DNA of 64,000 nt from a virus: IMG/VR virus record IMGVR_UViG_3300035152_000026, positions 22,002-86,001 of that record. One strand, written 5' to 3'. This document shows positions 2,069 to 64,000 of this stretch, one piece after another. A program made the translations under genes and the position numbers. Numbering within the stretch: position 1 is the first letter of the stretch; each line of letters begins with the position of its first letter. The notes beneath the pieces were generated by a model that worked only from the letters and a program-made list of their open reading frames with translations, did no database searches and was not told the origin of the DNA.

Positions 2069-2132
2069 TCGTGCTACGTTGAATCAGGCACGGCGGTCGC
2101 CGGCCATCTGAAGACAAACAAAGGGGTAATGT

Positions 2133-2690
2133 ATGGCCCTCGAACAGAATTCTGTTGTCCTTTTCGACTCCTCTGACGTAGAGACCGGTACAGCCGCCAA
2201 TCCACTCCGTGTTGACCCAACCGGTACAACCCCCCAACCGGTTACTGGTACCGTAACCGCGAATCAGGGCACACCGGCGGTTGTCGGCAACGCGTGGCCC
2301 ATCAAGGTCACCGACGGTGTGAGCACCGCAGGTATCGCGACGACTGCGCCGACAGCGAACGCTCCGGGCCTCGTAGTCCGTGTTGCGGGCGCTATCAGCG
2401 TCACTTTCTCGCAGCCAGCTACGGGCACGGTCACGTCGGTCAGCGTGACCAGCACGACCACTGCGACGACGCTTCTGGCAGCCAACGCAAACCGGCTCGG
2501 GGCAAGCTTCTGGAACGACGGCGCCCAGGTCGTTTACGTTCGGCTGAGTGCTGGCGCAACAACGGCGCTGTTCACGGTGCGCATCTCGAACAAGGGCTTC
2601 TACGAGCTTCAATTCCCCGCTTATACCGGCATCGTGACTGGAATCGTCGCGGCCGGCGTGGCCGTCGTGTTGGTCACTGAGTTGACCTAA
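2133..2690 (+). CDS. Thr/Ala-rich putative virion structural protein
   Basis: SD aaagggg 7 nt upstream of ATG. Thr/Gly/Ala-rich composition typical of fibre or decoration proteins. First gene of a plus-strand operon. Confidence 0.55.
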   Translation: MALEQNSVVLFDSSDVETGTAANPLRVDPTGTTPQPVTGTVTANQGTPAVVGNAWPIKVTDGVSTAGIATTAPTANAPGLVVRVAGAISVTFSQPATGTVTSVSVTSTTTATTLLAANANRLGASFWNDGAQVVYVRLSAGATTALFTVRISNKGFYELQFPAYTGIVTGIVAAGVAVVLVTELT

Positions 2691-2732
2691 ATTTCTTGAT
2701 CGTCACACCGATCAGGTAGACTACTCGCCGTC

Positions 2733-3299
2733 ATGGTTCCGCTTGAAGACGGCAACACGGGCATCGAAGACGACGCATCCGGTGCTCGTGTTCTCAGTGG
2801 CCGTTTACAAATCATTCCCACCGACGCGAGCGGAAACCCGGTCGATGTCATCTACGATAGTACCAGCGGCGGCTACATGCTCCGCATGGCAGGCCAAGTA
2901 GTCGTTTCGCCATCGCCCATCCCTGCTGGTGGAACTCCTATAACTGTTGCAGCGGATAACCCTCTCGAAATCACTGGTGGAACGAGCCCGCACGACACAG
3001 CGTACACCATCACGAACGGCAAAACGTTCTATCTTCAGCAATTCGTTGCTGGCTGTCAGGGCGATCCAACTGCGTCAGGTTCCGTGATCGAGTTGTATTT
3101 TGATGACGGTACAGAACATCTCGTAGATCGCATCTACATCGACGGGTTCACAAACTATGTAAGCTACGCCGATGTGTACAAGACCCGAGACGGAACAACG
3201 ATGGTAGGGAACGGCTCCAACCAAGTCATCGTCAGACGAAGACGCTTGTCCAACTCCGGGCAAGAAGTAGACGGCGTAGTTAGAGGGTACGAGGCGTAG
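2733..3299 (+). CDS. putative structural protein
   Basis: 188-aa ORF in the structural-like operon. Gly/Thr-rich. Confidence 0.5.
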   Translation: MVPLEDGNTGIEDDASGARVLSGRLQIIPTDASGNPVDVIYDSTSGGYMLRMAGQVVVSPSPIPAGGTPITVAADNPLEITGGTSPHDTAYTITNGKTFYLQQFVAGCQGDPTASGSVIELYFDDGTEHLVDRIYIDGFTNYVSYADVYKTRDGTTMVGNGSNQVIVRRRRLSNSGQEVDGVVRGYEA

Positions 3300-3301
3300 A
3301 C

Positions 3302-4147
3302 ATGGCAGGCGATACGATATTCAACGTCGAAGGGCTGGTTTCGACCAAATCCACACTTGATACAGGGCTTGTCACCCCAAGCGTGGGGCAGTCACTGAAG
3401 ATCGACGTGCAGGGATTCCTCTACGACATAGGTGGCCTTCGCGGAGCCTATGCGGGGGCTGTTACGCAAAGCGTTTCGGATGACGACACAAGCTACGTGT
3501 ACCTCGACAAATCGGCGTCACTGGTCATCAACACAACAGGCTTCCCCACTGGAGAGACCTACATTCAGCTCGCTCGTGTCGTTGCTGCTAATGGGGACAT
3601 TGCAGCCATCTACAACGAGAAAACCCTACTCGCTGCATCGAGTTCTTCGATCGGAACATGCCACATCAGCTATCCCGTTGACGGTGACGTGCGCGGTGGT
3701 GTGACATCGGCTAGCTCAAACAACGACTTTGCCGCAATTCGATTCGATTCTGGTGGCGACGGATGGAACCGAATCAACCGTAAACCCCCACAGAACTACA
3801 CGAGCGGCGATCTCAAGTTCCGCTTCTACTACTCCTGGCCCAGCGCCATCGGCAACAACAAAGAAGCGCGTTGGCGACTCGACTACGCGTTTCGATCTGC
3901 TTCTGACGCGCTGGGAACGTGGGACGGCTACGATCAACAAGATTTTGATGTTTCTGATGAAGCAGCTGATACGCTACTCTACAAAGAGCTTACGCTGCCA
4001 TCAGGAGACTTCGACATAACCGCTGATCTCATGCTGCTCAAGATCAGTCACCTGGGAACCGAGGACGACTGCCCAGAAAACTGCTACGTGCATCAGCAAG
4101 AGCTGATCTATACGGGCAGATTACTTGCCGGACAGGCAGGACAATGA
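3302..4147 (+). CDS. putative tail fibre / receptor-binding associated protein
   Basis: ATG 3 nt after the upstream stop. 281 aa. Its stop overlaps the next start (ATGA). Confidence 0.55.
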   Translation: MAGDTIFNVEGLVSTKSTLDTGLVTPSVGQSLKIDVQGFLYDIGGLRGAYAGAVTQSVSDDDTSYVYLDKSASLVINTTGFPTGETYIQLARVVAANGDIAAIYNEKTLLAASSSSIGTCHISYPVDGDVRGGVTSASSNNDFAAIRFDSGGDGWNRINRKPPQNYTSGDLKFRFYYSWPSAIGNNKEARWRLDYAFRSASDALGTWDGYDQQDFDVSDEAADTLLYKELTLPSGDFDITADLMLLKISHLGTEDDCPENCYVHQQELIYTGRLLAGQAGQ

Positions 4148-7377: not shown

Positions 7378-7962
7378 CTGCGTCCAGCCAGCGAAGCAGT
7401 GACTGGTACGGTGTCGAGCATGCCGTACCATCACATAGTGCGGGCGGCCATCTAACCACTCGATCAGCTTCCGTGGTCGCGCTCGGATGAACGCGCTGTC
7501 CGCGCCAATATCCCGGTTGGGGTACGCTCCGTAGCCGTGGAATCGCCGTGTAAATGCCAGCGTGCCGGGCGCGAGCCATCGATCGGTGGGCGTCTCCCAG
7601 AACGTGTCTGTAGCCTCTTCGTAGCTCCGAATCCCCCCAAACACGGACGCTTCTTTTCCGTCTCGGATAGCAGCTACCTGCACCGACACGCGAGCCGGCC
7701 CGTGCCAGTCATCGTCATCCCAGGTAACCAGGATGTCACCTTGCGCTAGCTGGACTAGCGCTTCGCGTTTCCAACCAAGAATCTTGCGCTCTTCCTGACG
7801 AACTAGCCGAATACGTGAGTCTTTTGGAACCGTAATGGCTGGATCGCCGTCGTCCAGGACAACGAGTTCACGCTCTGTGTAGTCCTGTGCGAGGAAGTCT
7901 ACGATAGCCTGCTGGGCGCGTTGTGGACGGTCAGCAGTCGGCATCAAACAGGACACGAGCAT
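7297..7962 (-). CDS. GT-A fold glycosyltransferase-like protein
   Basis: N-terminal SCLMPTADRP and a WDDDDWH acidic motif. Paralog of 15196..15990. The C-terminus overlaps the convergent gene by ~80 bp. Confidence 0.5.
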   Translation of the reverse strand: MLVSCLMPTADRPQRAQQAIVDFLAQDYTERELVVLDDGDPAITVPKDSRIRLVRQEERKILGWKREALVQLAQGDILVTWDDDDWHGPARVSVQVAAIRDGKEASVFGGIRSYEEATDTFWETPTDRWLAPGTLAFTRRFHGYGAYPNRDIGADSAFIRARPRKLIEWLDGRPHYVMVRHARHRTSHCFAGWTQLPRDRVLEFDVEVRVRRTAGIAGVDD

Positions 7963-7975
7963 GCTACCTATCGTA

Positions 7976-7991
7976 GATCGCGGACGCGATC
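7976..7991. promoter_or_regulatory. GATCGCG-GA-CGCGATC operator-like site (copy 2)
   Basis: Divergent region between the glycosyltransferase (7962, -) and the fibre gene (8029, +). Confidence 0.5.
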
Positions 7992-8028
7992 ATTGATAGG
8001 CTAATCAAAGTACGCGAATGGAGCATGC

Positions 8029-11000
8029 ATGGCCACGCAACTGAAGAACATCATCGCGTTTACGGCAGTCGGAGCCGGCGCACAGCAAACTGTCGCTCAT
8101 GGTCTCAACATTGACGGTCGAGGGGTCACCCCCGACAAGCTGGAGTTCGACAACGGCGACTTCAGTTTTATCGCAGCCGACGCGACGAATGTGACAGTGC
8201 AAAACGATGGCGCAGGCGTTGCGAACTGCAATGTCATGTGTGAGCACTGGCTTACGGTCGAACGCACGTTCGGACCTGTTAGCATCACGTCACTTACACC
8301 ACAACCGTTCATCGTTGCAGGGTCTGGCGGCGGCGGCAGCAACGTAGCTGACTGGCTCGGTACAACGGGTGCGGATGTCAACGTTGGCAACGCAGCACCG
8401 CCCGTCGCTGGCCAGGTGCTCAAGGCGACAAATCCAACAACCGCAACCTGGCAAGCCGATAGCGGTGTGTCGAACCCGCTCATCCTCCAGACCGGCAACG
8501 GCACGGTCACAGCGCCCAATGCTTACGCGTCAGGCGCAATCGGACATGGCATCGACGGCGACGTGGGCACTGCCGATGTCCAGGTTGATCCTACCGCAGC
8601 CGGGCTCGCGATTGGTTGGACGGACTCTTATACGGGCGGGACGGCGAGAGTCAAAGCTGGTGGTTTCGGTGGTGGTGGTGGTGGTGCATTCGCTCATGGA
8701 TTCGCGACGCTTGGCGGGGCGTTCACTGCACTGATTGAAGCCGGGCATTCCGGATCGACTGCCTTCGGTTACGCGGATGGCAGTGGCGCAAACGCGTCGA
8801 TTCGATCACGGGGGCGAGGTTCACAGGCTTTTGGTTGGGTGAGTGGAGGAACCGATGCTGCATACATCTACGCCGATGGCAGCGGATCATTCGCGGGCGG
8901 CTTTGCTTACGGCGCGTACGGTGCGCTGACACGCATTCGTGCGCAAGTCAGCGGATCGATGGCCTTCGGCAAAGTGTTCGGAGGTTCTGTTCGCACGAGT
9001 CTCAATGGCGCTCTCGCTGTGGGCTGCGGCAACAACCAGGGTGACGTACATGCGAGCGGTCTCGGTGCTGTTGCGCTCGGCTACGGCACTTACGGAGGTC
9101 TTGTCGAGGCATCTGCCAGCGGATCTGGGGCGGCTGGTCACGCATATGGCGCGACTGGTACTGTGCAGGCGTCTGGCGCAGGTGGTTGGGCATTCGGATA
9201 CGCCTATGAAGGCGGTGTCTATGCGCTGGGTAGCGGATCATTCGCAGGTGGCTACGCCAAAGGTGTGGGCAGTGCCGTTCTTGCTACTCTTCGCGGCTCG
9301 GCTGCGTTCGGCGGTGCGTACGGTGGAGGAACCGTTGAATCGATCGATGCCGGTACGCTGGCCTCTGGCTACGCCTACTCCGGCGGTCTGATTCAGGCGG
9401 ATGGGCGTGGATCCCAGGCAATGGGTCTGGCTCAGAACAACGGTGACATCCTCACGAACGCCTACGGCGCGATGGCACGTGGTTTCTGTGACGGCAACAA
9501 CTCACAGATCACGGCGGCGGATCGTGGTGCGTTCGCGTCGGGTACCGCGTTGACGGATGGAGATCTTCTGGTTTTCGGCTACGGCTCACACGGTGTCGGC
9601 GATGTTCGTGACGGAGCCAAGATCGGTACAGCCGCTGCTAGCCATGGCTGCTTCGCTGGTGGCTATGCGAGCGATGGAGCATCGCTCATCTACTCGCGAG
9701 AAGGTGGCTGTTTCGCCTTCGGTCGAGCGCAGTTCGAGGGCGACATCACTGCACGTGGTGTAGGTGGCTTCGCGCTTGGGGCTGCGAACGGTACTGCGAC
9801 TTACGGCCACGCCAAGATCTACACGAACGCAACAGGCGGTCTCGCGCAAGGCTACGTACGCGACACCCAGCCTCTAGGCGTGCAGTTTTCACAGATCCTT
9901 TGCTACGGCAAGGGAGCGTTCTCCGCTGGTTACGTTAACCAGCGTGGTACGATCTCAGCGAGTGGTGGTGGAGCGCATGCAGGTGGCTACGCGTCATCAG
10001 CTGCTATCTATGCAGGCGGTGAAGTACCTGCAAGCATCGAAGCCAGCGCACTTGGCGCGTTTGCGCATGGATTTTCCAAGCGTCCAGTGACTGCTGGTGT
10101 AACTTCTTACATGCGTGCGAGTGCAGCGGGAGCCTGGGCCGGTGGTTACGCGATAGGATATCTTTCCACGAGTGCTATTGAAGCTCAGAGTAAAGGGTCC
10201 CTTGCGCATGGTTACGCCCTCTCAGGTACTATCTACGCTAGCGCGCAAGGCGCTTTCGCGTCCGGGTTCAGCTCACTCAACGGAAGTATCGACGCAAGTG
10301 GTTATGGCGCGCTCGCCGGTGGGAGCGCGTTAGCAGCGGGGATCAACAACGCCAACATACAGGCGCAAGGCGTTGGCGCGTTTGCATTCGGCACTGCTGC
10401 TACTGGATACCCTACTGTCGGTTACGAGAGCCGCCTTCGTGCCTACGGAAACGGATCTTGGGCGGGTGGCGATGCGATTGCTACCACCTATGGAATAGCA
10501 ACCTCGCGAATTCAGGCGCTTGATCACGGTGCTCTCGCACATGGCTACAACGTAGATAGCTACATCGAGGCGCAGTCGAAAGGTTCACAAGCGTTCGGCT
10601 TCGCGGACAGTGCTGGCTACATCTATTCGTCAGCGTATGGTGCGTTTGCGTCTGGCCACGCAAAAGACTCTGCATACATTTATGCGTCTGGCAAGGGCGC
10701 ACGTGCTCACGGGTACGGAAAGGGCGGGCTTGCTACAGCACGGATTGGAGCGAGTGGGGGAGGTGCATTCGCGTTCGGATACGTGACTGCTCTCGAAAGC
10801 GCGGCAGGAATTTTTGCAACTAGTCGCGGCACATTCGCTGGCGGTAGCGTGCAAGGAACCTACAACATCACCGCATCCTCATCCGGGGCGTTCGCGTTTG
10901 GTCGGGCCGACACAGGCAACATTCAAGCAACGGCTTCTAACGCTGTGCAGTTCGGTGTCGGTGTCAACAGTGCCTCGAACACGATGCAGATTGGCAGTGC

Positions 11001-12861: not shown

Positions 12862-13602
12862 ATGACCGCGCCGCGCATCTGGTGGGACAGGCTCTGGGAC
12901 CTTGTGCGAGGCTGCACGAAGGTTGGCGCGGGATGTGCGAACTGTTGCTCCCTTGATCGCTTCGTGAACTACTATGGCCCCGGACGGCCTTACACAGGCG
13001 GTGACATCCTCGACGTCGAGAAGGGTGTCTGGTCTGGGAACGTCGAGCTTCGTGAGGACTGTTGGGATCAGCCTGCGCTGCTTCCACGATCCATGCGTGT
13101 GTTTGTCGCTGGGATGGGCGACCTGTTCCACGCGAACGTACCAGACGCGTACATCGATCAGGTGTTTCGCATCATGGAAACGGTTACACAGCATCAGTAT
13201 CTCGTGCTGACCAAACGAGTTACGCGAATGCGTGACTACGTGCAGAAGCGCTCTACGGTACCCGATCACATCCTGCTCGGTGCGTCAGTCGAAAACCAGG
13301 AATGTGCAGACGAACGCTTGCCGGTACTCACCGACATTTCGCACGCCCATCTCTGGGTAAACTGCGAGCCCTTGTTGAGCCCTGTTGACCTTTGGCCTTA
13401 TCTGCCCAAGCTCGTGTGGCTGACAGCAGGGCCAGAGGAAGCTCGTCCTGGGGCACGTCCTATGAAACCGGAGTGGATACGTTCACTACGCGACCAATGC
13501 GCTGACGTGGACATTCCGTTCTTCTCGAAGGATTACTTGATCGACGGCGTTGCCTACGTCGATTTTTTCACGCCGCGGCAGAGGCAACGCGCGGCCTCGT
13601 AA
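12862..13602 (+). CDS. phage Gp37/Gp68-like (DUF5131) protein
   Basis: N-terminal WDRLWDLVRGCTKVGAGCANCCS matches the three-Cys motif characteristic of the Gp37Gp68 family. Confidence 0.6.
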   Translation: MTAPRIWWDRLWDLVRGCTKVGAGCANCCSLDRFVNYYGPGRPYTGGDILDVEKGVWSGNVELREDCWDQPALLPRSMRVFVAGMGDLFHANVPDAYIDQVFRIMETVTQHQYLVLTKRVTRMRDYVQKRSTVPDHILLGASVENQECADERLPVLTDISHAHLWVNCEPLLSPVDLWPYLPKLVWLTAGPEEARPGARPMKPEWIRSLRDQCADVDIPFFSKDYLIDGVAYVDFFTPRQRQRAAS

Positions 13603-13614
13603 AGGAGCACCCCG

Positions 13615-16981: not shown

Positions 16982-18082
16982 TTGTCCAAGTATCTCATTC
17001 CCGTGTTGAACTACACACAAGCAGCCGCCGCGGTGGCCGCTGCCCTTCGCGCGAGGCGAACCGCACTGCTGCTAGGTTCGCCAGGCGTTGGCAAAACGGC
17101 CCTCGTGCGTGATGCTGCGGCCGCCATTGGGTTGCCTTGCCACGATCTGATCGCGTCCAACATGGACCCGACAGACGTCGCGGGGCTGCCATACCGCGAT
17201 CTACAGTCGGGTCGGGTGCTGCGCGAGCTGTTTCCCGAGATTCGGGCCGTCGTGGACGCTGCGGGTGTCTTATTCATCGACGAGGCGACCGCGATGCCGA
17301 AATCGGTCGAGGGCCCGATGCTACGTGTTGCGATGGAACGCAACGCAGGCGGCACGCCGTTGCACCCGGGCAGCCCCGTAGTACTCGCGTGCAACCCGCC
17401 GGAACAGGCACCGGGCGGCATCGAGCTGTCGGCGGCATTCATCAACCGGATCGTGCTGCTTCGCTATCAGCCCTCATTCGCGGAAGTGCAGTCCTACTTC
17501 AACGGTGAGGCGGTTCACGCTTCTCCCGTAGTGCTCGACGAGGACGCCTTCCAGGCCGCATGCGTTGCGGAGTTCGCTGACTTCGCCGCGACGCTTTCCC
17601 ACGCTACTGATCTGCTCGTTTATGATCCGCCGCGTGCAAGCGTTGATCAGGGCGAGCCGTGGGCATCCCCTCGCGGCTGGGAGATCGGCCTCTCCTGCCT
17701 GGCAGCGCATGGCGGTAAAGAGGATGACGTTGGCTACGCGCTCCTGACAGGTGCCGTAGGACCGTCCGCTGCTGGCGCGTACCTGGCAATTCGCAAGCTC
17801 CGTCTGCACCTGCCATCCATCGATGAGATCGCGGCCAACCCAACCAAGGCACGGCTGCCCGAATCGCTCGATCAGCAGATCGCTGCCCTGGGTCTCCTGG
17901 CCCGAGTCGCGCAGACCGATGTCTGGGCCGCGTGGACCTACGCGGGCCGGCTGCGGAAAGAGATTGGAGCTGCCTGCGGACGGTTCCTAATGAACAAGGT
18001 GCCGCAGGCCTCTAAGTTCGCCACCGTCGGGCGCAAAGCCCAAATCCAACTGCTGGCAAGAGTGCAGCGTGGGGCAGCATGA
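16982..18082 (+). CDS. MoxR-like AAA+ ATPase
   Basis: Walker A GSPGVGKT, Walker B LFIDEA. TTG start after a GGCCCCGAGGGGC motif and ggagga SD. Confidence 0.8.
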   Translation: MSKYLIPVLNYTQAAAAVAAALRARRTALLLGSPGVGKTALVRDAAAAIGLPCHDLIASNMDPTDVAGLPYRDLQSGRVLRELFPEIRAVVDAAGVLFIDEATAMPKSVEGPMLRVAMERNAGGTPLHPGSPVVLACNPPEQAPGGIELSAAFINRIVLLRYQPSFAEVQSYFNGEAVHASPVVLDEDAFQAACVAEFADFAATLSHATDLLVYDPPRASVDQGEPWASPRGWEIGLSCLAAHGGKEDDVGYALLTGAVGPSAAGAYLAIRKLRLHLPSIDEIAANPTKARLPESLDQQIAALGLLARVAQTDVWAAWTYAGRLRKEIGAACGRFLMNKVPQASKFATVGRKAQIQLLARVQRGAA

Positions 18083-19311
18083 CATCAGCGACCAGACAGC
18101 TCATCCAGCGTGCCCGAGGGCTTTTGTTGGGCCTTGGTTGGCGACACCCATTCTTTGCTCTACCCGGTGCGAAGATCTACCTGCGTGTGTCCATCCACAT
18201 CCAGACTGCTTGTGCTGACGTACGTGGATGCGTGTACCTCAATCCGAGTTTCTGCGATCAGCTCTCGGACAAGCAGCTTACCTTCGTTCTGGCGCACGAG
18301 ATCATGCATCTGCTGCTGTTTCACTTTGGGCGGCGAATGAACCGCAAGCCGTTCCGCTGGAATCGTGCCGCGGATCGCGCAATCAACTTCGGTCTCGTGC
18401 AAATAGGGCTGGAAATGCCGCCCATGGGGTTACTTCCCACCGACCCGGCGCATAACGAGTACACAACAGAAGAACTCTACGAGGTCGAGGAAGAACAGCC
18501 AGGCGATGACGGTCAAGCCTCGCTGGGCAAGATGCCCGGAGCAACCGGTGGTTGTGGCGTGCTTCCACCTCAGGGTGGTGATGGCGATGGTGATGACGAT
18601 GGCGCCGAGGGTGAAGCACCAGAAGACGGCGCGGCGTTTCCCTCCACAGCTGAGTCAGCACGGACCTGGCGGCAGCTTGCTCACAGCGCTGAGCAGAACG
18701 CGCGCTCGGCAGGCGACTGCTCTGGAGATCTGCTTGCACGCGTGCTCCGCGTTCCACCATCCAAAGTGGCGTGGACTGCGGTGCTACGCAACGCATGTGC
18801 ACGTGCAATCGCTGAACGCGGCAACGACGACGTTAGTTGGCAGCGACGCAACCGGCGGTCGTTCGCGGGCGACTTCATTCTCCCAGGTGGAATCACGTCC
18901 AAGGCACTCGTCGCTGTGGCGGTAGACACCAGCGGTTCTGTCTCTGACGAAGACCTCGAACAAGCACTCAGCGAGGTGGAAGCAATCAGCCGTGCGACGG
19001 GTGTGGCCATATTTCTGGTCACACACGACGCGGAGGTGCACTTCGCCGACTGGATCCGTCCCGGCACACGACGAGCTGCTCTCGCCAAGACTCTGATCGG
19101 TCGCGGCGGAACGCTATACACGCCTGCGTACGCGGCCATCGAGAGCGCCAGCAAGAAGTTCGACTACGCGATCCATCTGACAGACGGTATGCCGTGTGAG
19201 ACGTGGCCTGAACGGCCGCGCAACTGCCGTAAGCTGACCGTCGCCTTGATCGGTTACGCGAGCAGAAAAGAAATTCCTGAGTTCGCTGATGTCATCGAGA
19301 TAGAAATCTGA
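18079..19311 (+). CDS. VWA-domain protein with N-terminal putative metallopeptidase domain (DUF2201-like)
   Basis: HEIMHLLLFH HExxH motif. VAVDTSGSVS MIDAS-like motif. ATGA-coupled to the MoxR ATPase. Confidence 0.75.
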   Translation: MTSATRQLIQRARGLLLGLGWRHPFFALPGAKIYLRVSIHIQTACADVRGCVYLNPSFCDQLSDKQLTFVLAHEIMHLLLFHFGRRMNRKPFRWNRAADRAINFGLVQIGLEMPPMGLLPTDPAHNEYTTEELYEVEEEQPGDDGQASLGKMPGATGGCGVLPPQGGDGDGDDDGAEGEAPEDGAAFPSTAESARTWRQLAHSAEQNARSAGDCSGDLLARVLRVPPSKVAWTAVLRNACARAIAERGNDDVSWQRRNRRSFAGDFILPGGITSKALVAVAVDTSGSVSDEDLEQALSEVEAISRATGVAIFLVTHDAEVHFADWIRPGTRRAALAKTLIGRGGTLYTPAYAAIESASKKFDYAIHLTDGMPCETWPERPRNCRKLTVALIGYASRKEIPEFADVIEIEI

Positions 19312-21342: not shown

Positions 21343-22631
21343 GCCGCGAACGAGACCGCCGCGCGCCAGGGGCACTACCCCATGCGACACCGCAACGTGG
21401 TGGCGGATCACCCGGCAAGCGTACGCGCGTGCAGGCGCGTTACGGCAACGTTCCACCACCAATGCTGCCGCGACCTGAGATCGCGCAAGCAACCGTTCGA
21501 GCGCAATCCTGGGACGGCGAGCCCAAAGACATCTCGAATCTTCGCGAGGGGGACCTCGTGGACGTCACACTGCAACTCGATAGCCCTGACTGGCGTGATA
21601 TGTACGTGACGCCTTACGTTGTCGGTGCGAGTCCCGTACTCGAATCCATCGAGCACATGGCTCCCTGGGAGGGAACGCGTGACACGTACCACTTCGCGTT
21701 GCGCGCCACAGGAAAGCTGGGCACGGTTACCCCAAAAGCCGTGCTTGCGTTCAGCGGCACCGACGAAGACACCGAGTACGAGTTCATGGCCAGCTGCACG
21801 ATGGACCTAGCTCAGTTCGAGGATCAATGCCATGTCGCCTCAGAACACGCTATGCTGGCGTTCCATCGCATGGCTGAAATTCTGACCGCCGAGGGCGCAG
21901 CGTATTTCAAGGCGTACAAGCAATTCGAGACTGTGTTGGAGACGCCGCCTGATGACTCTCTGGCGGAAACGCTGCTGCTTGCCGCGCTCACACTGCTAGC
22001 CGGTGCTGGCGGTAGCACGGTTGGAAGTCTCCTCAAAGGTGGCAGCAAAGAGATTGGCCGCGTGGCGTTCGCGGACAGCATGAAGGACCTGGTGAAGTTC
22101 AGCATCAAGAAAGGCGCGGGCGATCTTGGTAGTGAGCCGCCGTCGCTAGAAGGGGGTCCCGCAGAGCCCTTCCAGTGGTATATGCACATGTCCGGTCAGC
22201 TGCACGGTCAAATGCAGTTCGTGCAGGAGGTCATCGACAGTTGGCGGCGTTCGGTTCGAGCGCATCGAATGCTCGCGGACTTCGATCCCGCGGTCGTCAT
22301 TCAAACGCATTTGCAGTTTGACGGCGCACCTATGACTACTCGTCCGATGCCGGACGTGGCGCAGCTTGAACGCAGTTTCGAGCTTGCGATCTGGCAAGCG
22401 TGGTTGACTGACTATGGGTATGTCCTCGCGCGCTCTCCAGTATACGTTCCGCAGACCGGTCGTGGGGCGCTCACAGTGCAACAGAACTTCAACGACGCTG
22501 TCATCGAGCGCTTGGACGCCCTGGGTGTTGATGGCGCTGCTTGGGTCGTACGCTTCAGTGGCCACGCGAAGGCTGCCGTAGAAAAGACGTTGAAGAAACG
22601 CAGCCTGGAAGAATACGAAAACAACCGTTGA
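21339..22631 (+). CDS. hypothetical protein (430 aa)
   Basis: ATGA overlap. Long ORF with coding bias. Confidence 0.6.
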   Translation: MSRERDRRAPGALPHATPQRGGGSPGKRTRVQARYGNVPPPMLPRPEIAQATVRAQSWDGEPKDISNLREGDLVDVTLQLDSPDWRDMYVTPYVVGASPVLESIEHMAPWEGTRDTYHFALRATGKLGTVTPKAVLAFSGTDEDTEYEFMASCTMDLAQFEDQCHVASEHAMLAFHRMAEILTAEGAAYFKAYKQFETVLETPPDDSLAETLLLAALTLLAGAGGSTVGSLLKGGSKEIGRVAFADSMKDLVKFSIKKGAGDLGSEPPSLEGGPAEPFQWYMHMSGQLHGQMQFVQEVIDSWRRSVRAHRMLADFDPAVVIQTHLQFDGAPMTTRPMPDVAQLERSFELAIWQAWLTDYGYVLARSPVYVPQTGRGALTVQQNFNDAVIERLDALGVDGAAWVVRFSGHAKAAVEKTLKKRSLEEYENNR

Positions 22632-43734: not shown

Positions 43735-43830
43735 CAGATCTGAGCCCTTGAGGCGCCCAGAGCGAGATATGCGCTAAGTACTTGATAATATTAAGATATT
43801 ATAGGTAAATTTGCCAGTTGACGATAATAC
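43735..43830. promoter_or_regulatory. AT-rich island upstream of int (candidate attP / int promoter)
   Basis: tacttgataatattaagatattataggtaaatttgcc is strongly AT-rich against a ~62% GC background and contains imperfect inverted repeats. Confidence 0.35.
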
Positions 43831-44914
43831 CGGTTGTCGGGCAAGCTCTCAGATCATGTCCGAGGGAACCGACCTGATCCCGCGCCCACCCTGGCAAATT
43901 AGGCCCTCAGACGCTGCTCTGAGCCCCGATCTGCAAGACCGCCTAGAGGAGGCACTCCTGGCGTTCCGGCGCACCCTGGACTCCCCAGAGAGCGTACGCG
44001 GCTACCGTGACGACTGGCGCCGCTGGGTGGCTTGGCTCTCCGCCGAAGGGGTCCATCCACTGCACGCGCTGCCCCTGCACGTTCTGCGCTATCTCGTGAG
44101 CATGCAGGACGCTGGCAGGGCGAAGACGACGCGCTCACGCGCACTGGCCGTGATCCGTTCGACCTACGCCGCGCTGGTAGTTGCGTTCTCGGAGGTGCCT
44201 GGGGTGCTAGACGCAAACCCCGCGCGCGAGGTCCGAAACATCAAAGTGGATCACGAGCCGAAGACGCCCTGGCTCGCAGAAGACGAAATGCGCCGTCTCC
44301 TAATACGGCCGCCGTCAACCGCGCCGTGGGTAGAACGTCGCGATTGGGTTATCTGCGCCACGCTAGCAGGTACGGGTTGGCGTCGAGCGGAGATCGCACG
44401 CCTTCGTCGTGATGCGCTCCTCGACACCCCTGGTGGCTTCGCTGCGCAAGTGCACGCGAAAGGTGGCAAGGATGCCATCGTGCCACTTCCAGTTTGGTTG
44501 TCGCACGAGCTGGCGGAATGGTGCCAAGCCAATCGTATCGACGCAGGGCCAATATTCCCGCGACGCGAAGGCGCCGACGTGGCCGTTGGCCCCACGACAG
44601 TCAGGAACGCCGTGAAGCGATCAGCGGAACGCGCAGGGCTCGACCTGACACGCGCAACACCTCATGCGATTCGGCGTTCGTTCGCGACGATTACAGGTCA
44701 GCGTGGCGTCTCAATCGAAGATCGTCAGGCGGCGATGCTACATGCCTCAAAGGCGACAACAGAGCGCTACGACAAAGCGAGCAAACTGCCAGCACAAGCA
44801 CCCGGCGAAGTGCTTCGCGATCTTGTCGAGCCATCGAATGGCGAAGCAAACGCCGCCGCATCAAATGACACGCAGCCAAAAACTTGGCCGCCGCGTCGAG
44901 CTGATTACGAGTGA
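43811..44914 (+). CDS. int: tyrosine recombinase / phage integrase
   Basis: C-terminal catalytic motifs HAIRRSF and TTERYD (R...HxxR...Y). Preceded by an AT-rich region. Confidence 0.85.
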   Translation: MPVDDNTGCRASSQIMSEGTDLIPRPPWQIRPSDAALSPDLQDRLEEALLAFRRTLDSPESVRGYRDDWRRWVAWLSAEGVHPLHALPLHVLRYLVSMQDAGRAKTTRSRALAVIRSTYAALVVAFSEVPGVLDANPAREVRNIKVDHEPKTPWLAEDEMRRLLIRPPSTAPWVERRDWVICATLAGTGWRRAEIARLRRDALLDTPGGFAAQVHAKGGKDAIVPLPVWLSHELAEWCQANRIDAGPIFPRREGADVAVGPTTVRNAVKRSAERAGLDLTRATPHAIRRSFATITGQRGVSIEDRQAAMLHASKATTERYDKASKLPAQAPGEVLRDLVEPSNGEANAAASNDTQPKTWPPRRADYE

Positions 44915-60747: not shown

Positions 60748-61017
60748 ATGAACAACAACAAGCTGAGACCAACTGTCGAGGACGCTCACGCCGCTTCCAG
60801 GTGGGGATTTGCTAACACATTCACTGCTCGCTCGGTCGCCTTAGCGGTAGCGCAACGGCTCGGCCCCGATGACCGTGAAGGCGCTTGGTGGTACGCAAAG
60901 GTTCGGGTGTGTGCGCGAAATGCCCTTGAAGAGTGGCTACGTGAAAAAGTAATCGAGGCGGCCCCCCGATCAGGACAACCGACCGAATATCGATTCGTGA
61001 AGAAGGAGAGAACATGA
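60748..61017 (+). CDS. hypothetical protein
   Basis: SD aggagcag. Confidence 0.4.
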   Translation: MNNNKLRPTVEDAHAASRWGFANTFTARSVALAVAQRLGPDDREGAWWYAKVRVCARNALEEWLREKVIEAAPRSGQPTEYRFVKKERT

Positions 61018-61838
61018 GGGCAATCGTATTGGCTGAGATCAACAGTGACGGCACGCAAGGTGAGGTGCACACCTGCCGCGGCAGTGTGATCAAGATTGGA
61101 AAAATGAAACGCTCGGGGTTGAAGCTCAACCATCCTTCAGTCAGTCGGATGCACGCGGTGTTCGAGTGCGAGCCTGGAGGCATTGTCCACCTAGTCGATC
61201 TGGGTAGCGTGCAAGGTACGTTCATCAACGAGAAGCAGATCAACAAAGCAGCCGTCAAAGTCGGCGACACGGTTCGTTTTGGTGACGTGATGCTCGCGGT
61301 TCGTGAGATTACGGACGAGGATGACACAGATGAAGCTGAAGCTGAAGCTGAAGCTGAAGCTGAAGCTGAAGCTGAAGCTGAAGCTGGTACCGCAGATGCA
61401 GCCTCTACAGGGCTCAGCGATCTCGCGGCCCGTATTGATCGGCTCAAACGTATCCGCAACATATACAGTGCAGGAGCTGCGCAGAGCAGCGCCGAGGTAC
61501 CGAGCATAGGAAAGCTGGCCAGTACTGCCATCGTCCACAGCGTACTCGACGCCAACGCGCCAAAACAAATCGCTGACGTGATCAACGATGTCTGTGACAA
61601 CGTTGCCGAGCTGCGCAAAATCGCGTCCGCTGACCGTGTTACGCAAGCGCTGGACGGTCTCATCCAAGACTGGGCGCCTGTGTTGCAGGTCATCGGTAAG
61701 TACAGGGAGGCGAACGTCGAACGTACTGCGTTGTTCCGTGCCGGCTTGATCAAGAAGCTCAAGGACGAATTCGATCTGAGCGAGGCCAACGCAGTGGAGA
61801 TCGTTCAATCAGCGTCGGAAACGTCCAACCTGACTTGA
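61014..61838 (+). CDS. FHA-domain protein with (EA)n linker
   Basis: N-terminal FHA signature (GSVIKIGK...VSRMHAVFE...LVDLGSVQGTFIN). Then (EA)x13 encoded by a GAAGCT tandem repeat. Confidence 0.7.
   Translation: MRAIVLAEINSDGTQGEVHTCRGSVIKIGKMKRSGLKLNHPSVSRMHAVFECEPGGIVHLVDLGSVQGTFINEKQINKAAVKVGDTVRFGDVMLAVREITDEDDTDEAEAEAEAEAEAEAEAEAGTADAASTGLSDLAARIDRLKRIRNIYSAGAAQSSAEVPSIGKLASTAIVHSVLDANAPKQIADVINDVCDNVAELRKIASADRVTQALDGLIQDWAPVLQVIGKYREANVERTALFRAGLIKKLKDEFDLSEANAVEIVQSASETSNLT
61332..61386 (+). repeat. (GAAGCT)n hexanucleotide microsatellite, about 9 copies
   Basis: Encodes the (EA)n linker in the FHA-domain protein. Confidence 0.85.
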
Positions 61839-61883: not shown

Positions 61884-62192
61884 ATGACAGATGATCCCGC
61901 ACACGAATACACGGTTCCTGGCGGTGCTGCGGCAGCCCTCTCGACAATGCGCCCTGAGATGGCCCGTATCGTGGCCACACAGCTTCGTGAGGGCATCCTG
62001 CAACCGCTGTCGCCAGAAGAGCAAGCTGGCCTTCTCGACCTGGTAGCTGACCTCATTCAGCGTGTCAGCGATGACCAGGATCAACTCCGCGATATTCTAC
62101 TCACGGTGCGTGGAATCCGCGAATACGGTAAAGGCCTACAAGGCATGTCGGAGAAGATCATTGCAGCTCTAGCTGCTTGCAACGTTGGTTGA
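61884..62192 (+). CDS. hypothetical protein
   Basis: SD gaggagg. 102 aa. Confidence 0.45.
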   Translation: MTDDPAHEYTVPGGAAAALSTMRPEMARIVATQLREGILQPLSPEEQAGLLDLVADLIQRVSDDQDQLRDILLTVRGIREYGKGLQGMSEKIIAALAACNVG

Positions 62193-62226: not shown

Positions 62227-63810
62227 ATGCCAGCACGCGTTTACAAGTATGGAGCCCGCCCTAGCCAAGATCCGAACTTGCTCAGGCAGATGAGGCTAGG
62301 CCGTCAGTACTACAACGCGCTCGTTGAAGCGGAGAACAAGCGGCGCCAAATCGGATGGGGCGGCGAATCTCCGCCACCACCACCGCACCGAGGTAGATGT
62401 CAGTGCGAGAAGTGCCAAGATGCATGGGCGAAGACGTCGCCTCCCCACGAGAAGTACGACTGCGACTGCGCTGAGTGCGAAAAGCACCGCGAGGCGCACC
62501 CGGCAGAGCACGACAACTGTAAGTGTGCGGCTTGCCGCGCGCACTGGAATGCAGTGTGGGCAGCTACCCGTGCTATACCGCTACTCGACGTTCGTCCATT
62601 ACGAACTACATGGGCGGCGAAAGGACTCTACTGGGGAACCTACAACGTGATCGAACAGGCCTTCTCGGCAGCCTGGCAACACACGTCTCTGCTCCGCCCG
62701 GTGAAATTCCGGTCGTGGCGCAAAGGAGACGTCGCGGCCGTCCAAATTCAACCCGGAAGAGATCCTCATCGGTACGTACAGACTCACAAAGCGCCAGACG
62801 CACGGACAGGAAGACGTACACGTAACGGACTTGGACGGCACACGGTAGAAATTAGGATCGGCAGCAATGGGGCTACACCCATTTTCTGCACCCCGATCCG
62901 CATAGAAAAGCACCGCGAGCTGTCTGGACAAATCACACATGTCCATGTGCGGCGGCGTTACAATGCCGATCAGCAGGTTTGGTCGGTCGCGTTCACTTGC
63001 AAGGATGCTGACCCAAGGACGGACGCGGCCGAGGAAGGCGTCGTTGCGGTAGACGTCAGCTGGCGCAAGATGCCTGACGGCTCCTGGCGATTGGGCTACG
63101 CGCGTGATGCGGCCGGTCACGTGAGTGAGCTACGCATGCCAGTCAGTTGGACGGCACGCGCTGACCGTGCGGAGAAGATCCACTCACACCGTGACAAGCG
63201 CCTCAACGAAGTACGGGCGTGCTGGCCTGTAGTCGGTAAGACGAAATCCTGCCAAAAGGCTGTACGAAGACTACGTAGTCTAGGAGTACTCACCGCGGAT
63301 CAAGACGCGTGGGTTGCACGCGAAATGCATCTCTGGCGGTATGAGTGCGGTTGCTGGCGGCGTAGCCGAACCGGACGTCGCGCAGCGCTGCGTGAATGGG
63401 TGCGTGAGCTACGCTGTCAATACGCGGCTGTCATCGTCAAGAATACAGGGCACAAGAAGATCAAGGAGGAACACGGGCTGCCTCAGAAGGCTCAACGGCA
63501 AGGACAACATGCGGCACCAGGAGAAACAGTGGAGGTGCTACGGGAAGTGTTTGGCGCCGATGGAATGCGGATCGTAGAAGCGAAGCACACGAGTGCGCGT
63601 TGCCCCGATTGTGGCACAATCACTCCCGTGAACGGACAACGCATGCTTCGTTGCGAGGGGTGTGGTACGCAACGAGACTGCGACGACATAAGCACCCGAA
63701 ACATGTGGGCCCTCTACCAAGCCGGCAAATGGAAAAAACCTACCGCTCGAAAAACGACCTCCAGGTTCGCGAAACGGCACAAGAAAAACGAGGTGCCCCC
63801 GGAATGCTAG
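62227..63810 (+). CDS. compact TnpB/Cas12-like RNA-guided nuclease homolog (527 aa)
   Basis: SD aaggag. RuvC-I-like VVAVDVS. Conserved VEAKHTSARCPDCG...CEGCG zinc finger followed by RDCDDISTRNM RuvC-III-like segment. Stop codon embedded in the first CRISPR-like repeat. Confidence 0.8.
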   Translation: MPARVYKYGARPSQDPNLLRQMRLGRQYYNALVEAENKRRQIGWGGESPPPPPHRGRCQCEKCQDAWAKTSPPHEKYDCDCAECEKHREAHPAEHDNCKCAACRAHWNAVWAATRAIPLLDVRPLRTTWAAKGLYWGTYNVIEQAFSAAWQHTSLLRPVKFRSWRKGDVAAVQIQPGRDPHRYVQTHKAPDARTGRRTRNGLGRHTVEIRIGSNGATPIFCTPIRIEKHRELSGQITHVHVRRRYNADQQVWSVAFTCKDADPRTDAAEEGVVAVDVSWRKMPDGSWRLGYARDAAGHVSELRMPVSWTARADRAEKIHSHRDKRLNEVRACWPVVGKTKSCQKAVRRLRSLGVLTADQDAWVAREMHLWRYECGCWRRSRTGRRAALREWVRELRCQYAAVIVKNTGHKKIKEEHGLPQKAQRQGQHAAPGETVEVLREVFGADGMRIVEAKHTSARCPDCGTITPVNGQRMLRCEGCGTQRDCDDISTRNMWALYQAGKWKKPTARKTTSRFAKRHKKNEVPPEC

Positions 63811-64000
63811 CTCGATGGCTACTCAATCGAGACAGTCGGGTGTGCGTTTCAAACCACTGGCGCAGCCGCCCCGGAATGCCAGCTCGATGACTACTCAATC
63901 GAGACAGCTCGCGTGCAATTGCCGCGGCCAAAGCTTTCTGCCACCCGAAATGCTAGCTCGATGGCTACTCAATCGAGACGCGTAGCGGAAGCCAGTTCGC
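63798..64000 (+). CRISPR. CRISPR-like array (at least 3 repeats of 36 nt; continues past window end)
   Basis: Repeats at 63798-63833, 63870-63905 and 63944-63979 (CCCGGAATGCTAGCTCGATGGCTACTCAATCGAGAC with 1-2 substitutions). Spacers 36 and 38 nt. Internal hairpin CTCGAT/ATCGAG. Confidence 0.6.

Follow-up and report, generated by a model that had tools for sequence, protein, structure and literature searches.

The stretch of DNA analyzed here, referred to as the window, comprises the 64,000 nucleotides at positions 22,002 to 86,001 of the IMG/VR virus record IMGVR_UViG_3300035152_000026. Close to its 3' end, the window contains a gene for a Cas12-like effector and, immediately after it, a CRISPR array that reaches the end of the window. 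The positions of the gene, the array, and the residues discussed below are given in Table 1. The first repeat of the array contains the stop codon of the effector gene. The ATG at position 62227 is the likely start of this gene, rather than the TTG at 62185 upstream, because the homologs begin at the same methionine (M-x-T-R-V-Y-K-Y-G). The encoded protein belongs to a compact clade of Cas12m proteins, found on viral and metagenomic contigs, in which a RuvC triad of Asp, Lys, and Asp (D-K-D) is conserved and the REC domain carries zinc knuckles. This clade extends the known Cas12m family.

The order of domains in the effector is WED, REC with zinc knuckles, WED, RuvC-I, coiled-coil REC2, RuvC-II, lid, TNB zinc finger, and RuvC-III. 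The AlphaFold2 model of the protein has a predicted local distance difference test (pLDDT) value of 87.2 and a predicted template modeling score (pTM) of 0.78; in this model, the long helices at residues 306-332 and 357-398 fit the coiled coil inserted in RuvC. In a Pfam search with the single sequence, the TNB domain (PF07282) was the sole match, and NCBIfam gave no significant match. Each of the four cysteines of the TNB finger (C459, C462, C476, and C479) is present in 36 of 36 close homologs.

Relatives of the protein were collected with a word-indexed search, which returned 36 full-length homologs (38-76% identity, 472-531 amino acids (aa)) and three distant ones, and with an exhaustive search, which returned 1,181 cluster representatives at E <= 1e-3. 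A family profile built from 39 sequences was matched to solved protein chains. The profile matched the Cas12m chains 23vw_A (E-value 1.4e-67), Cas12m2 (8hio/8hhl, 2.5e-53), 8pm4 (6e-45), and UnCas12m4a (1.6e-30) over profile positions ~2-469, that is, over nearly its full length, while Fanzor2, TnpB, and Cas12f ranked far behind. A Foldseek search with the AlphaFold2 model gave the same picture: the four best fold matches in the PDB were all Cas12m2 or Cas12m (E-values 3e-21 to 3e-17, TM-scores 0.57-0.60), with Cas12m2 (8hhl, 3e-21, 0.60) at the top and TnpB and Cas12f below the Cas12m chains. The top PADLOC model was Cas12u1, with E-values of 1.1e-35 for the window protein and 1.2e-50 for its relative P0014; V-U1 is the earlier name of type V-M. 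The His-Arg dyad in the WED domain, H229-R230, is invariant in all 39 family sequences and aligned to VQVHRWLP of Cas12m2. Because of the profile, fold, and PADLOC matches and this dyad, the window protein is assigned as a divergent Cas12m (type V-M). In Cas12m2, the corresponding residues, H269 and R270, recognize the scaffold of the CRISPR RNA (crRNA) (PMC10442227).

These matches rule out a Cas12j-, Cas12k-, or TldR-like identity for the protein. A preliminary description of the window had compared it to Cas12k and TldR as a possibly nuclease-attenuated or nuclease-dead, RNA-guided DNA binder with which a phage could silence genes instead of cutting them; the function proposed there is the known function of the Cas12m family, but the appropriate comparator is Cas12m. 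The homologs of 38-76% identity (36 or more) keep ~100 invariant or nearly invariant positions. A tblastn search found no homolog of the window protein in GenBank phages, and in the GTDB species genomes only two distant relatives were found (25% identity), in metagenome-assembled genomes of Polyangiaceae and Stellaceae.

Table 1. Positions of the effector gene, its array, and selected features within the 64,000-nucleotide window. Residue numbers refer to the effector protein.
Feature	Position	Strand	Details
cas12m-like effector gene	62227..63810	+	527 aa plus TAG stop; open reading frame translation
Three tandem zinc-knuckle units, residues 54-107	62386..62547	+	Form PPH-x3-4-CxCxxC-xx(H/W); predicted from motif and family conservation
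WED dyad H229-R230	62911..62916	+	Aligns with H269-R270 of Cas12m2
RuvC-I Asp, D276 (GAC)	63052..63054	+	In GVVAVDVSW; aligns with H317 of Cas12m2 and with the Asp of AIDLGWR in 23vw
K405 (AAG)	63439..63441	+	RuvC-II position, normally Glu; aligns with D485 of Cas12m2 and a Glu of 23vw
Lid motif, residues 407-431	63445..63519	+	Two short helices and a loop, including K413 and E414/E415; AlphaFold2 model and likeness to Cas12m2
E451 (GAA)	63577..63579	+	C-terminal end of strand beta-5; aligned to residue 467 of Fanzor2 chain 9b0l_P
TNB-domain CCCC zinc finger, C459, C462, C476, C479	63601..63663	+	PF07282, E-value 6.9e-6
RuvC-III D-x-D, D484 and D486	63676..63684	+	Within RDCDD (residues 483-487); D486 at the catalytic position
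CRISPR array	63798..64000	+	Reaches the window end; 36-nt repeats at 63798-63833, 63870-63905, and 63944-63979
Tyrosine integrase	43811-44914		Phage_integrase domain and N-terminal SAM-like domain

The RuvC-II segment of the protein (residues 398-409, QYAAVIVKNTGH) contains a lysine, K405, followed by N406 (codon AAT). In the AlphaFold2 model, a beta strand at residues 401-406 terminates at K405/N406, and short helices at 409-414 and 420-429 come next. In the profile alignment, the lysine column of the family falls on Asp485 of Cas12m2, the first Asp of VLVDD (the numbering was verified), and in 23vw_A the same column holds the Glu of IVLEEF. Asp485 is the RuvC-II member of the Cas12m2 triad, H317-D485-D579 (Omura et al. 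2023, PMC10442227). The claim that Lys stands where the RuvC-II glutamate is expected, with Asn next to it, thus held up in the profile alignment.

The other two parts of the RuvC site are retained, as had been described from the outset. In RuvC-III, described previously only as DCDD, the catalytic residue can be specified as D486, which aligns with the Asp of the ANAD motif in AsCas12f and with D579 of Cas12m2; the second Asp, D484, is kept throughout the superfamily. D276, K405, and D486 thus make up the triad, in place of the D-E-D of canonical Cas12 nucleases. Among the 36 close homologs, D276, D484, and D486 are each found in all 36 and K405 in 35. The sole exception at K405 is a Ser in P0035, a protein that is shorter at its N-terminus (404 aa). 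Because Lys is kept in 35 of these 36 sequences, K405 is not a sequencing error, and it is not a chance residue either.

The preliminary description had also allowed that a nearby glutamate, such as E414 or E415, might turn out to occupy the RuvC-II position. Both residues were rejected as the true RuvC-II residue: in the model and the alignment they lie in lid helix 1, nine residues past the strand, and E414 is present in only 29 of 36 homologs. The lid of Cas12m2 likewise follows RuvC-II and consists of the helices L-alpha-1 and L-alpha-2 (PMC10442227). The model of the window protein has pLDDT values below 50 at lid residues 425-429.

To describe the distribution of the lysine, the triads were tabulated from an alignment of 173 superfamily representatives, and a rough neighbor-joining tree was used to place them. 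D-E-D was found in 91 representatives, D-K-D in 43, N-E-D in 8, N-D-D in 7, and N-G-D in 4; H-D-D and the others are singletons. A core D-K-D clade of 39 leaves is monophyletic in this tree and has no other triads inside; its sister, P0046, has Glu at the RuvC-II position. The four additional D-K-D proteins (P0075, P0097, P0148, and P0161; 557-631 aa) are scattered among D-E-D neighbors. This distribution suggests that the change from Glu to Lys arose about five times independently. Because the change recurs on the rough tree, the lysine may have been selected for, rather than reflecting drift or simple decay.

At the RuvC-I column, about 25 of the 173 representatives have Asn and 5 have His, and the triads N-G-D, N-T-D, H-P-D, and H-M-D also occur. 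Degenerate RuvC sites in Cas12m-like proteins are thus more varied than the published list of clades. That list, in the summary of Wu et al. 2022 provided in PMC10442227, comprises HEK/HQK, HDD, DED/NED, and DED/DND/NED, and NDD has also been reported (PMC11013384; bioRxiv 2026.03.26.714355). The literature searched contained no Cas12m paired with D-K-D.

The second distinctive feature of the protein lies in the REC domain. The motif CxCxxC occurs exactly three times, beginning at residues 58 (CQCEKC), 79 (CDCAEC), and 98 (CKCAAC), in agreement with the three copies noted earlier at residues ~57-105. Each unit has its own PPH or His before it. In the AlphaFold2 model, the cluster is placed between the REC helix at residues 16-44 and the helix at 101-116. 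The third unit (C98, C100, C103, and H106) is the one conserved in the family, whose consensus at the cluster is PPxPPH...CxCxxC(K/R)AHW: H54 is found in 30 of the 36 close homologs, C98 in 28, C100 and C103 in 34 each, and H106 in 32. The conserved feature therefore appears to be a single knuckle, with three Cys and a His as the predicted zinc ligands. Most members have one unit, P0003, P0010, and P0017 have two, and three are present only in the window protein and in P0002, the closest homolog (76% identical), which comes from the same sequencing run as the window. A recent tandem duplication of DNA was ruled out as the source of the three units; because no tandem repeat is left at the DNA level, the duplications appear to be old.

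At the site of the knuckle, the profile alignment shows a helical insertion of 27-44 residues in Cas12m2 and 23vw, and the Cas12m2 segment with R111 and R112 aligns onto the PPH...CxCxxC knuckle. In Cas12m2, these arginines form part of an Arg-rich pocket, or 'Roof', by which the non-target strand is held (PMC10442227, PMC11013384), and this REC element is reported as highly conserved in Cas12m. The window protein lacks it, which is a difference within the family and no ground for exclusion from it. Because both the helical insertion and R111/R112 fall at the knuckle, a compact zinc knuckle appears to have taken the place of a long, Arg-rich helical element in the clade, and this would explain part of the clade's small size. 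The preliminary description had named no precedent for such a Cys cluster in the N-terminal domain of a Cas12 or TnpB; one exists in Un1Cas12f1, which has a CCCH zinc finger (PMC8053092). An N-terminal knuckle in a Cas12m, or one in triplicate, was not found in the literature searched.

Arrays were examined in nine loci of the family. An array is present on the same strand as the effector gene in all nine, and in eight its first repeat overlaps the stop codon; in the ninth, L027, the array lies ~1.2 kb downstream of the gene, beyond two small genes. The number of repeats varies widely: L001 has 21 and L002 30 (both are P0014 loci), L028 24, L026 9, L005 and L022 6 each, L023 5, L024 4-5, and L027 2. 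The spacers of the window array are 36 and 38 nt long, and the third is cut by the window end. The first repeat at the 3' end of the gene occupies positions 7533-7568 in L001, 11460-11495 in L023, 11190-11225 in L026, and 9506-9541 in L005. The recurrent C-terminal tails of the homologs (DNASPAA, RNASSAA, and PPEC) are the translated 5' half of the repeat, and in L023 the stop codon lies within the repeat loop. The overlap between repeat and stop codon implies that gene and array would be transcribed together, and the effector mRNA may lose its 3' end when crRNAs are processed.

Folding of the nine repeat variants gave a hairpin of 6 bp and a pseudoknot of 3 bp, with 100% of the cells paired. 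Compensatory changes occur at five of the pairs, and none of 500 shuffles reached the covariation score. The helix of the pseudoknot is short, however, and covariation is seen at only one of its pairs. The fold agrees with the two-stem pseudoknot of the Cas12m crRNA (PMC11013384). No anti-repeat was found elsewhere in the 64-kb window, allowing up to 3 mismatches. Pfam matches to Cas1, Cas2, and Cas4 were absent within 10 kb of the gene in L001, L022, L023, L024, L026, L027, and L028.

L001 (7525-9010) and L002 (3831-5971) represent the same locus in two samples. Their arrays, with 21 and 30 repeats, differ internally and at the end proximal to the gene, and L002 contains one duplicated spacer. 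Because these repeats differ between samples, the arrays turn over, although no adaptation genes were found nearby. In L022 (6916-7185; the P0020 locus, on a 102-kb contig), the six repeats are separated by gaps of 11-17 nt instead of ~36 nt. Either the array has degenerated or its guides are very short.

Targets were sought for the spacers in several databases. The two complete window spacers, searched with 22-nt seeds, have no exact match in IMG/VR or in the JGI metagenome contigs, and 33-35 spacers (>=30 nt, from five arrays) gave no blastn match in GenBank phages or PLSDB plasmids. Seeds of three further spacers, from the arrays of relatives, were searched in IMG/VR as well: two L001 spacers matched only their own array, and the self-targeting spacer of L023 matched nothing. 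Within the 64-kb window itself, the window spacers have no self-match (blastn-short, E < 0.01).

The self-targeting spacer is spacer 2 of L023 (11567-11602), which is identical over 36 of 36 positions, on the same strand, to L023 positions 13568-13603. The protospacer lies in a 64-bp gap that separates two genes of the same orientation, and 8 nt remain between its end and the following start codon; its 5' flank is GTGCGGGT. It has no repeat-like flank, lies 2 kb from the array beside the lysis module, and no sigma-70-like promoter was found there. Among ~100 spacers from the nine loci, this is the only significant self-match within the available flanks. An active nuclease would not be expected alongside a perfect self-match, unless the protospacer-adjacent motif (PAM) is absent. 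We take the match as a hint of self-regulation only and give it little weight, because it is a single metagenomic case.

The phage context of the family is seen in relatives of the window. The 81.5-kb contig of P0014 is an IMG/VR viral genome, and L023 contains a holin gene directly past the array as well as genes for an M23 peptidase, a peptidoglycan-binding protein, and an integrase. Integrases near the effector were also observed in L022 and L028, in addition to L023, and are consistent with temperate elements.

We consider it quite probable that the window protein is a miniaturized, probably phage-borne type V-M effector that binds DNA under the guidance of its crRNA and does not cut it. 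This appears to be the best reading because every Cas12m tested so far binds without cleaving. Bigelyte et al. (PMC11013384) found that Cas12m proteins with D-E-D, H-D-D, and N-D-D triads bind double-stranded DNA in a PAM-dependent manner without cleavage, and that Cas12m protects against plasmids and phage by roadblocking. In Cas12m2, a single Mg2+ connects the RuvC pocket to a phosphate of the displaced strand, and Asp485 aids this binding; cleavage was not regained when HDD was converted to DED (PMC10442227). Because D-E-D members do not cut and this change did not restore cutting, the triad itself appears not to decide cleavage in Cas12m. For the same reason, the reversion of K405 to Glu proposed in the preliminary description would probably be uninformative. 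The conservation of D276 and D486 fits a pocket that binds a strand, for which catalysis is not required.

The proposed mechanism is as follows. The array and the gene are probably transcribed together, and crRNAs of ~50-60 nt would be processed without a trans-activating CRISPR RNA (tracrRNA). The complex would recognize a PAM, form an R-loop, and stay bound, which would block transcription or replication of the target. As in Cas12m2, the pocket formed by D276 and D486, together with D484, would have room for no more than one Mg2+, along with a phosphate from the displaced strand. The ammonium group of K405 may replace the second metal or contact the DNA backbone, and either would make two-metal hydrolysis impossible; a positive charge contacting DNA was suggested in a similar way by Omura et al. 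for the HQK clade (PMC10442227). The zinc knuckles would probably take over, in less space, the grip on the non-target strand that the Arg-rich REC element provides. The element may aim the system at competing mobile elements and possibly also repress genes of its own.

Several observations weigh against a non-cutting binder on a phage. The strict conservation of D276, D484, and D486 fits a working catalytic site as well as a binding pocket, and the identity of the clade to the tested Cas12m proteins is only about 18-28%. Arrays of up to 30 spacers that differ between samples look like ordinary interference, with which binding and cutting agree equally well. The window spacers have no target in the databases searched, and because no target was found, no PAM was derived; the single self-match in L023 could be one that lacks a PAM. 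No virion genes were identified within the 64-kb window, and for this reason its description as phage rests on the relatives. The remaining points concern E451, a residue that the preliminary description did not consider and that pairs with Glu467 of Fanzor2 in the sequence alignment. Glu467 is the relocated catalytic Glu of Fanzor2, essential by experiment and shifted by 50 residues; in Fanzor and TnpB2, which still cut after the loss of the canonical Glu, the relocation is a shift of ~45-50 residues downstream (PMC10530073, PMC11832414); the 46 residues from K405 to E451 fall within this range. Furthermore, all four D-K-D outliers (P0075, P0097, P0148, and P0161) have Glu or Asp at or beside position 451.

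These last points would favor a RuvC site that is rearranged and active, in which another acidic residue, either E451 at the end of beta-5 or E433 after the lid, completes the site and the protein cuts or nicks DNA, possibly without collateral activity. Rearrangements of RuvC-II are known from branches of TnpB and Cas12, some of them virus-specific (Altae-Tran et al. 2023), and the invariance of D276, D484, and D486 in the 36 homologs would be expected of such an enzyme. However, a rearranged RuvC-II combines an inert residue at the old position with a conserved Glu about 45-50 residues downstream. In the proven cases the old position holds Gly or Pro (PMC10530073), and not a cationic Lys that would repel a metal, whereas here Lys is kept in 35 of 36 sequences and position 451 is Glu in only about 7 of 36, with Ala and Ser in the two closest homologs (76% and 62% identical). 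Acidic residues at 451 are not enriched with the lysine, as they are found in 33% of K-type and 34% of E-type relatives. E433 is better conserved (34 of 36 in the clade), but it is part of an AAPG(E) motif shared by 45% of the Glu-type relatives and by 23vw, and two members of the clade have K or W at this position; it was rejected as a clade-specific compensating Glu. Near the active site, only E433, E477, D484, and D486 are acidic in >=80% of the K-type sequences, and E477 sits within the CxxC of the TNB finger; no acidic residue that is both specific to the K-clade and invariant was found. Moreover, Cas12m proteins with an intact D-E-D triad do not cleave either (PMC11013384). We regard a rearranged, active RuvC as unlikely.

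A different question is what the array is directed at. The system could be a self-regulatory CRISPR whose main role would not be defense, with the array encoding programmable repressors of the element's own genes or those of the host, for example in the lysis-lysogeny decision or in the timing of late genes, similar to regulators of the TldR or dCas12f-sigmaE type. The L023 spacer, with its perfect intergenic match just upstream of a gene and near the lysis module, is the kind of guide such a system would use, and the gaps in L022 resemble short natural regulatory guides; several arrays are very small (2-6 repeats), and gene and array form a single unit in eight of nine loci. Against this stand the rarity of such spacers (1 of ~100 within the available flanks), the lack of a match for the window spacers in the 64-kb window, and the lack of a promoter-like site at the L023 target. 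The other arrays have 21-30 diverse spacers that differ between samples, which is typical of immunity. A system devoted to self-regulation seems to us decidedly unlikely. That the lysine marks a dead protein and the array is a relic, so that the effector as a whole is decaying, is highly improbable. Degenerate arrays do occur (irregular spacing in L024, ultrashort spacers in L022, and only two repeats, ~1.2 kb away, in L027), as does the N-terminally shorter P0035 with its Ser at 405. But the open reading frame of the window is full length, the ~100 invariant or nearly invariant positions in the 36 or more homologs include the RuvC Asp residues, the zinc-finger Cys, and the H-R dyad, compensatory changes in the repeats keep their fold, and the arrays of 21-30 spacers differ between samples.

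A more speculative reading, which we think rather unlikely, treats the lysine as a selected replacement for the second metal, with the change from Glu to Lys arising about five times in Cas12m on the rough tree. The site would then either clamp the displaced strand in a metal-sparing way or act as a Lys-assisted nuclease or nickase that needs one metal, whose chemistry would be like that of a PD-(D/E)xK site placed on an RNase H fold. Together with a grip of the knuckles on single-stranded DNA, it would serve a CRISPR interference circuit of the phage that acts on its own genes and on those of its rivals.

The preferred reading, a crRNA-guided binder that does not cut, can be compared with what is known of related systems. 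With the Cas12m proteins of solved structure (MmCas12m2, 8HHL/8HIO; GoCas12m, 8PM4; and 23vw), the window protein shares the fold, the domain order, and the arrangement as a lone effector next to an array, and the systems agree in having no tracrRNA anti-repeat and a repeat with a hairpin and a pseudoknot; adaptation genes, which the known systems lack nearby, gave no Pfam match close to the gene in the relatives of the window. The WED H-R dyad, the D-x-D of RuvC-III, the lid after RuvC-II, and the coiled-coil insertion in RuvC are also shared, and a non-canonical triad is typical of the subtype. In contrast, the proteins of the clade are ~70-120 aa smaller (472-531 versus about 577-614 aa), have the D-K-D triad, carry a short Pro-rich loop with one to three knuckles in place of the R111/R112/R126 'Roof' of Cas12m2, and have a TNB finger of the type CCCC instead of HCCC; the low identity to the tested proteins was noted above. 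The clade was found on viral and metagenomic contigs, whereas a scan of species-representative bacterial genomes gave only the two distant relatives.

MvCas12m from the myxophage MV-1 (610 aa, D305-E463-D555) was called the first phage Cas12m (bioRxiv 10.64898/2026.09.14.751636). It is encoded by a phage, as the effectors described here probably are, and like them it has an array alongside and no identifiable spacer targets; its locus has no cas1, cas2, or cas4, for which the relatives of the window gave no Pfam match near the gene. However, it is larger and has the canonical D-E-D triad, which sets it apart from the smaller D-K-D lineage described here. The Fanzor, TnpB2, and RIIr nucleases resemble the clade in having lost the canonical RuvC-II Glu while keeping RuvC-I and RuvC-III, and E451 of the window protein aligns with their relocated Glu in Fanzor2. 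They differ in that their old position holds Gly or Pro and the relocated Glu is conserved, whereas the clade has a conserved Lys and a variable residue 451; moreover, they are omega-RNA-guided nucleases of transposons and are not associated with CRISPR.

For the zinc knuckles, the closest parallel noted is the REC1-N/ZF region of Un1Cas12f1 (Cas14a1), where two antiparallel REC helices in the N-terminal lobe of this miniature Cas12 are linked by a zinc finger of the CCCH type (PMC8053092). That protein, however, belongs to another subtype, has one finger, and acts as a dimer, whereas the units described here consist of CxCxxC with a flanking His and occur in up to three tandem copies. Cas12k, Cas12c, and TldR are also RNA-guided DNA binders that do not cleave their target, and some are repressors. 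Cas12k gave a weak fold match far below Cas12m, and it works together with Tn7-like transposases; Cas12c and TldR gave no match in the structure search. TldR has no CRISPR array, and Cas12c keeps D-E-D for crRNA processing.

The remaining genes of the window add to the description of the element. The neighbors upstream of the effector are a gene for an FHA-domain protein (61014-61838), located directly upstream of the effector region, and genes for unknown proteins; several window genes match PHROGs of unknown function. The FHA-domain protein contains ~seven Glu-Ala pairs that derive from a hexanucleotide microsatellite (about 61330-61400), and L024 also has an FHA-domain gene near the effector (7810-8631). 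On the same contig, which is that of P0002, positions 2102-3544 encode a protein of 480 aa in which a WGR domain is combined with the regulatory and catalytic domains of PARP, an unusual gene for a phage-like element. Further upstream in the window, a gene for a MoxR-type AAA ATPase (16982-18082) is followed by a DUF2201 gene (18079-19311; metallopeptidase-like and VWA-like). The window has this pair in common with L001, and a DUF2201 gene begins both L001 (1-1016) and L003. The sharing of DUF2201 suggests a common backbone between the elements.

Nothing in these findings overturns the current understanding of Cas12m. The D-K-D triad adds a RuvC configuration to the known range of the family, and it is conserved across a whole clade. 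Together with the four other D-K-D lineages, which are probably independent given the rough tree, the clade provides a natural experiment on the selection of a degenerate RuvC pocket in DNA-binding Cas12 proteins. Cas12m systems are present on several predicted viral genomes; a preprint of September 2026 reports a lone D-E-D example as the first phage Cas12m. The perfect self-targeting spacer of L023 makes self-regulation of a phage by a non-cutting effector directly testable. At 472-531 aa, the proteins of the clade are ~15-20% smaller than those Cas12m proteins (577-614 aa) that are now being developed into base and epigenome editors, and the zinc-knuckle swap suggests a route to smaller programmable DNA binders. 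The main interest of the clade lies in what the recurrent lysine does in a degenerate RuvC pocket, and in the smaller natural DNA binder that it offers.

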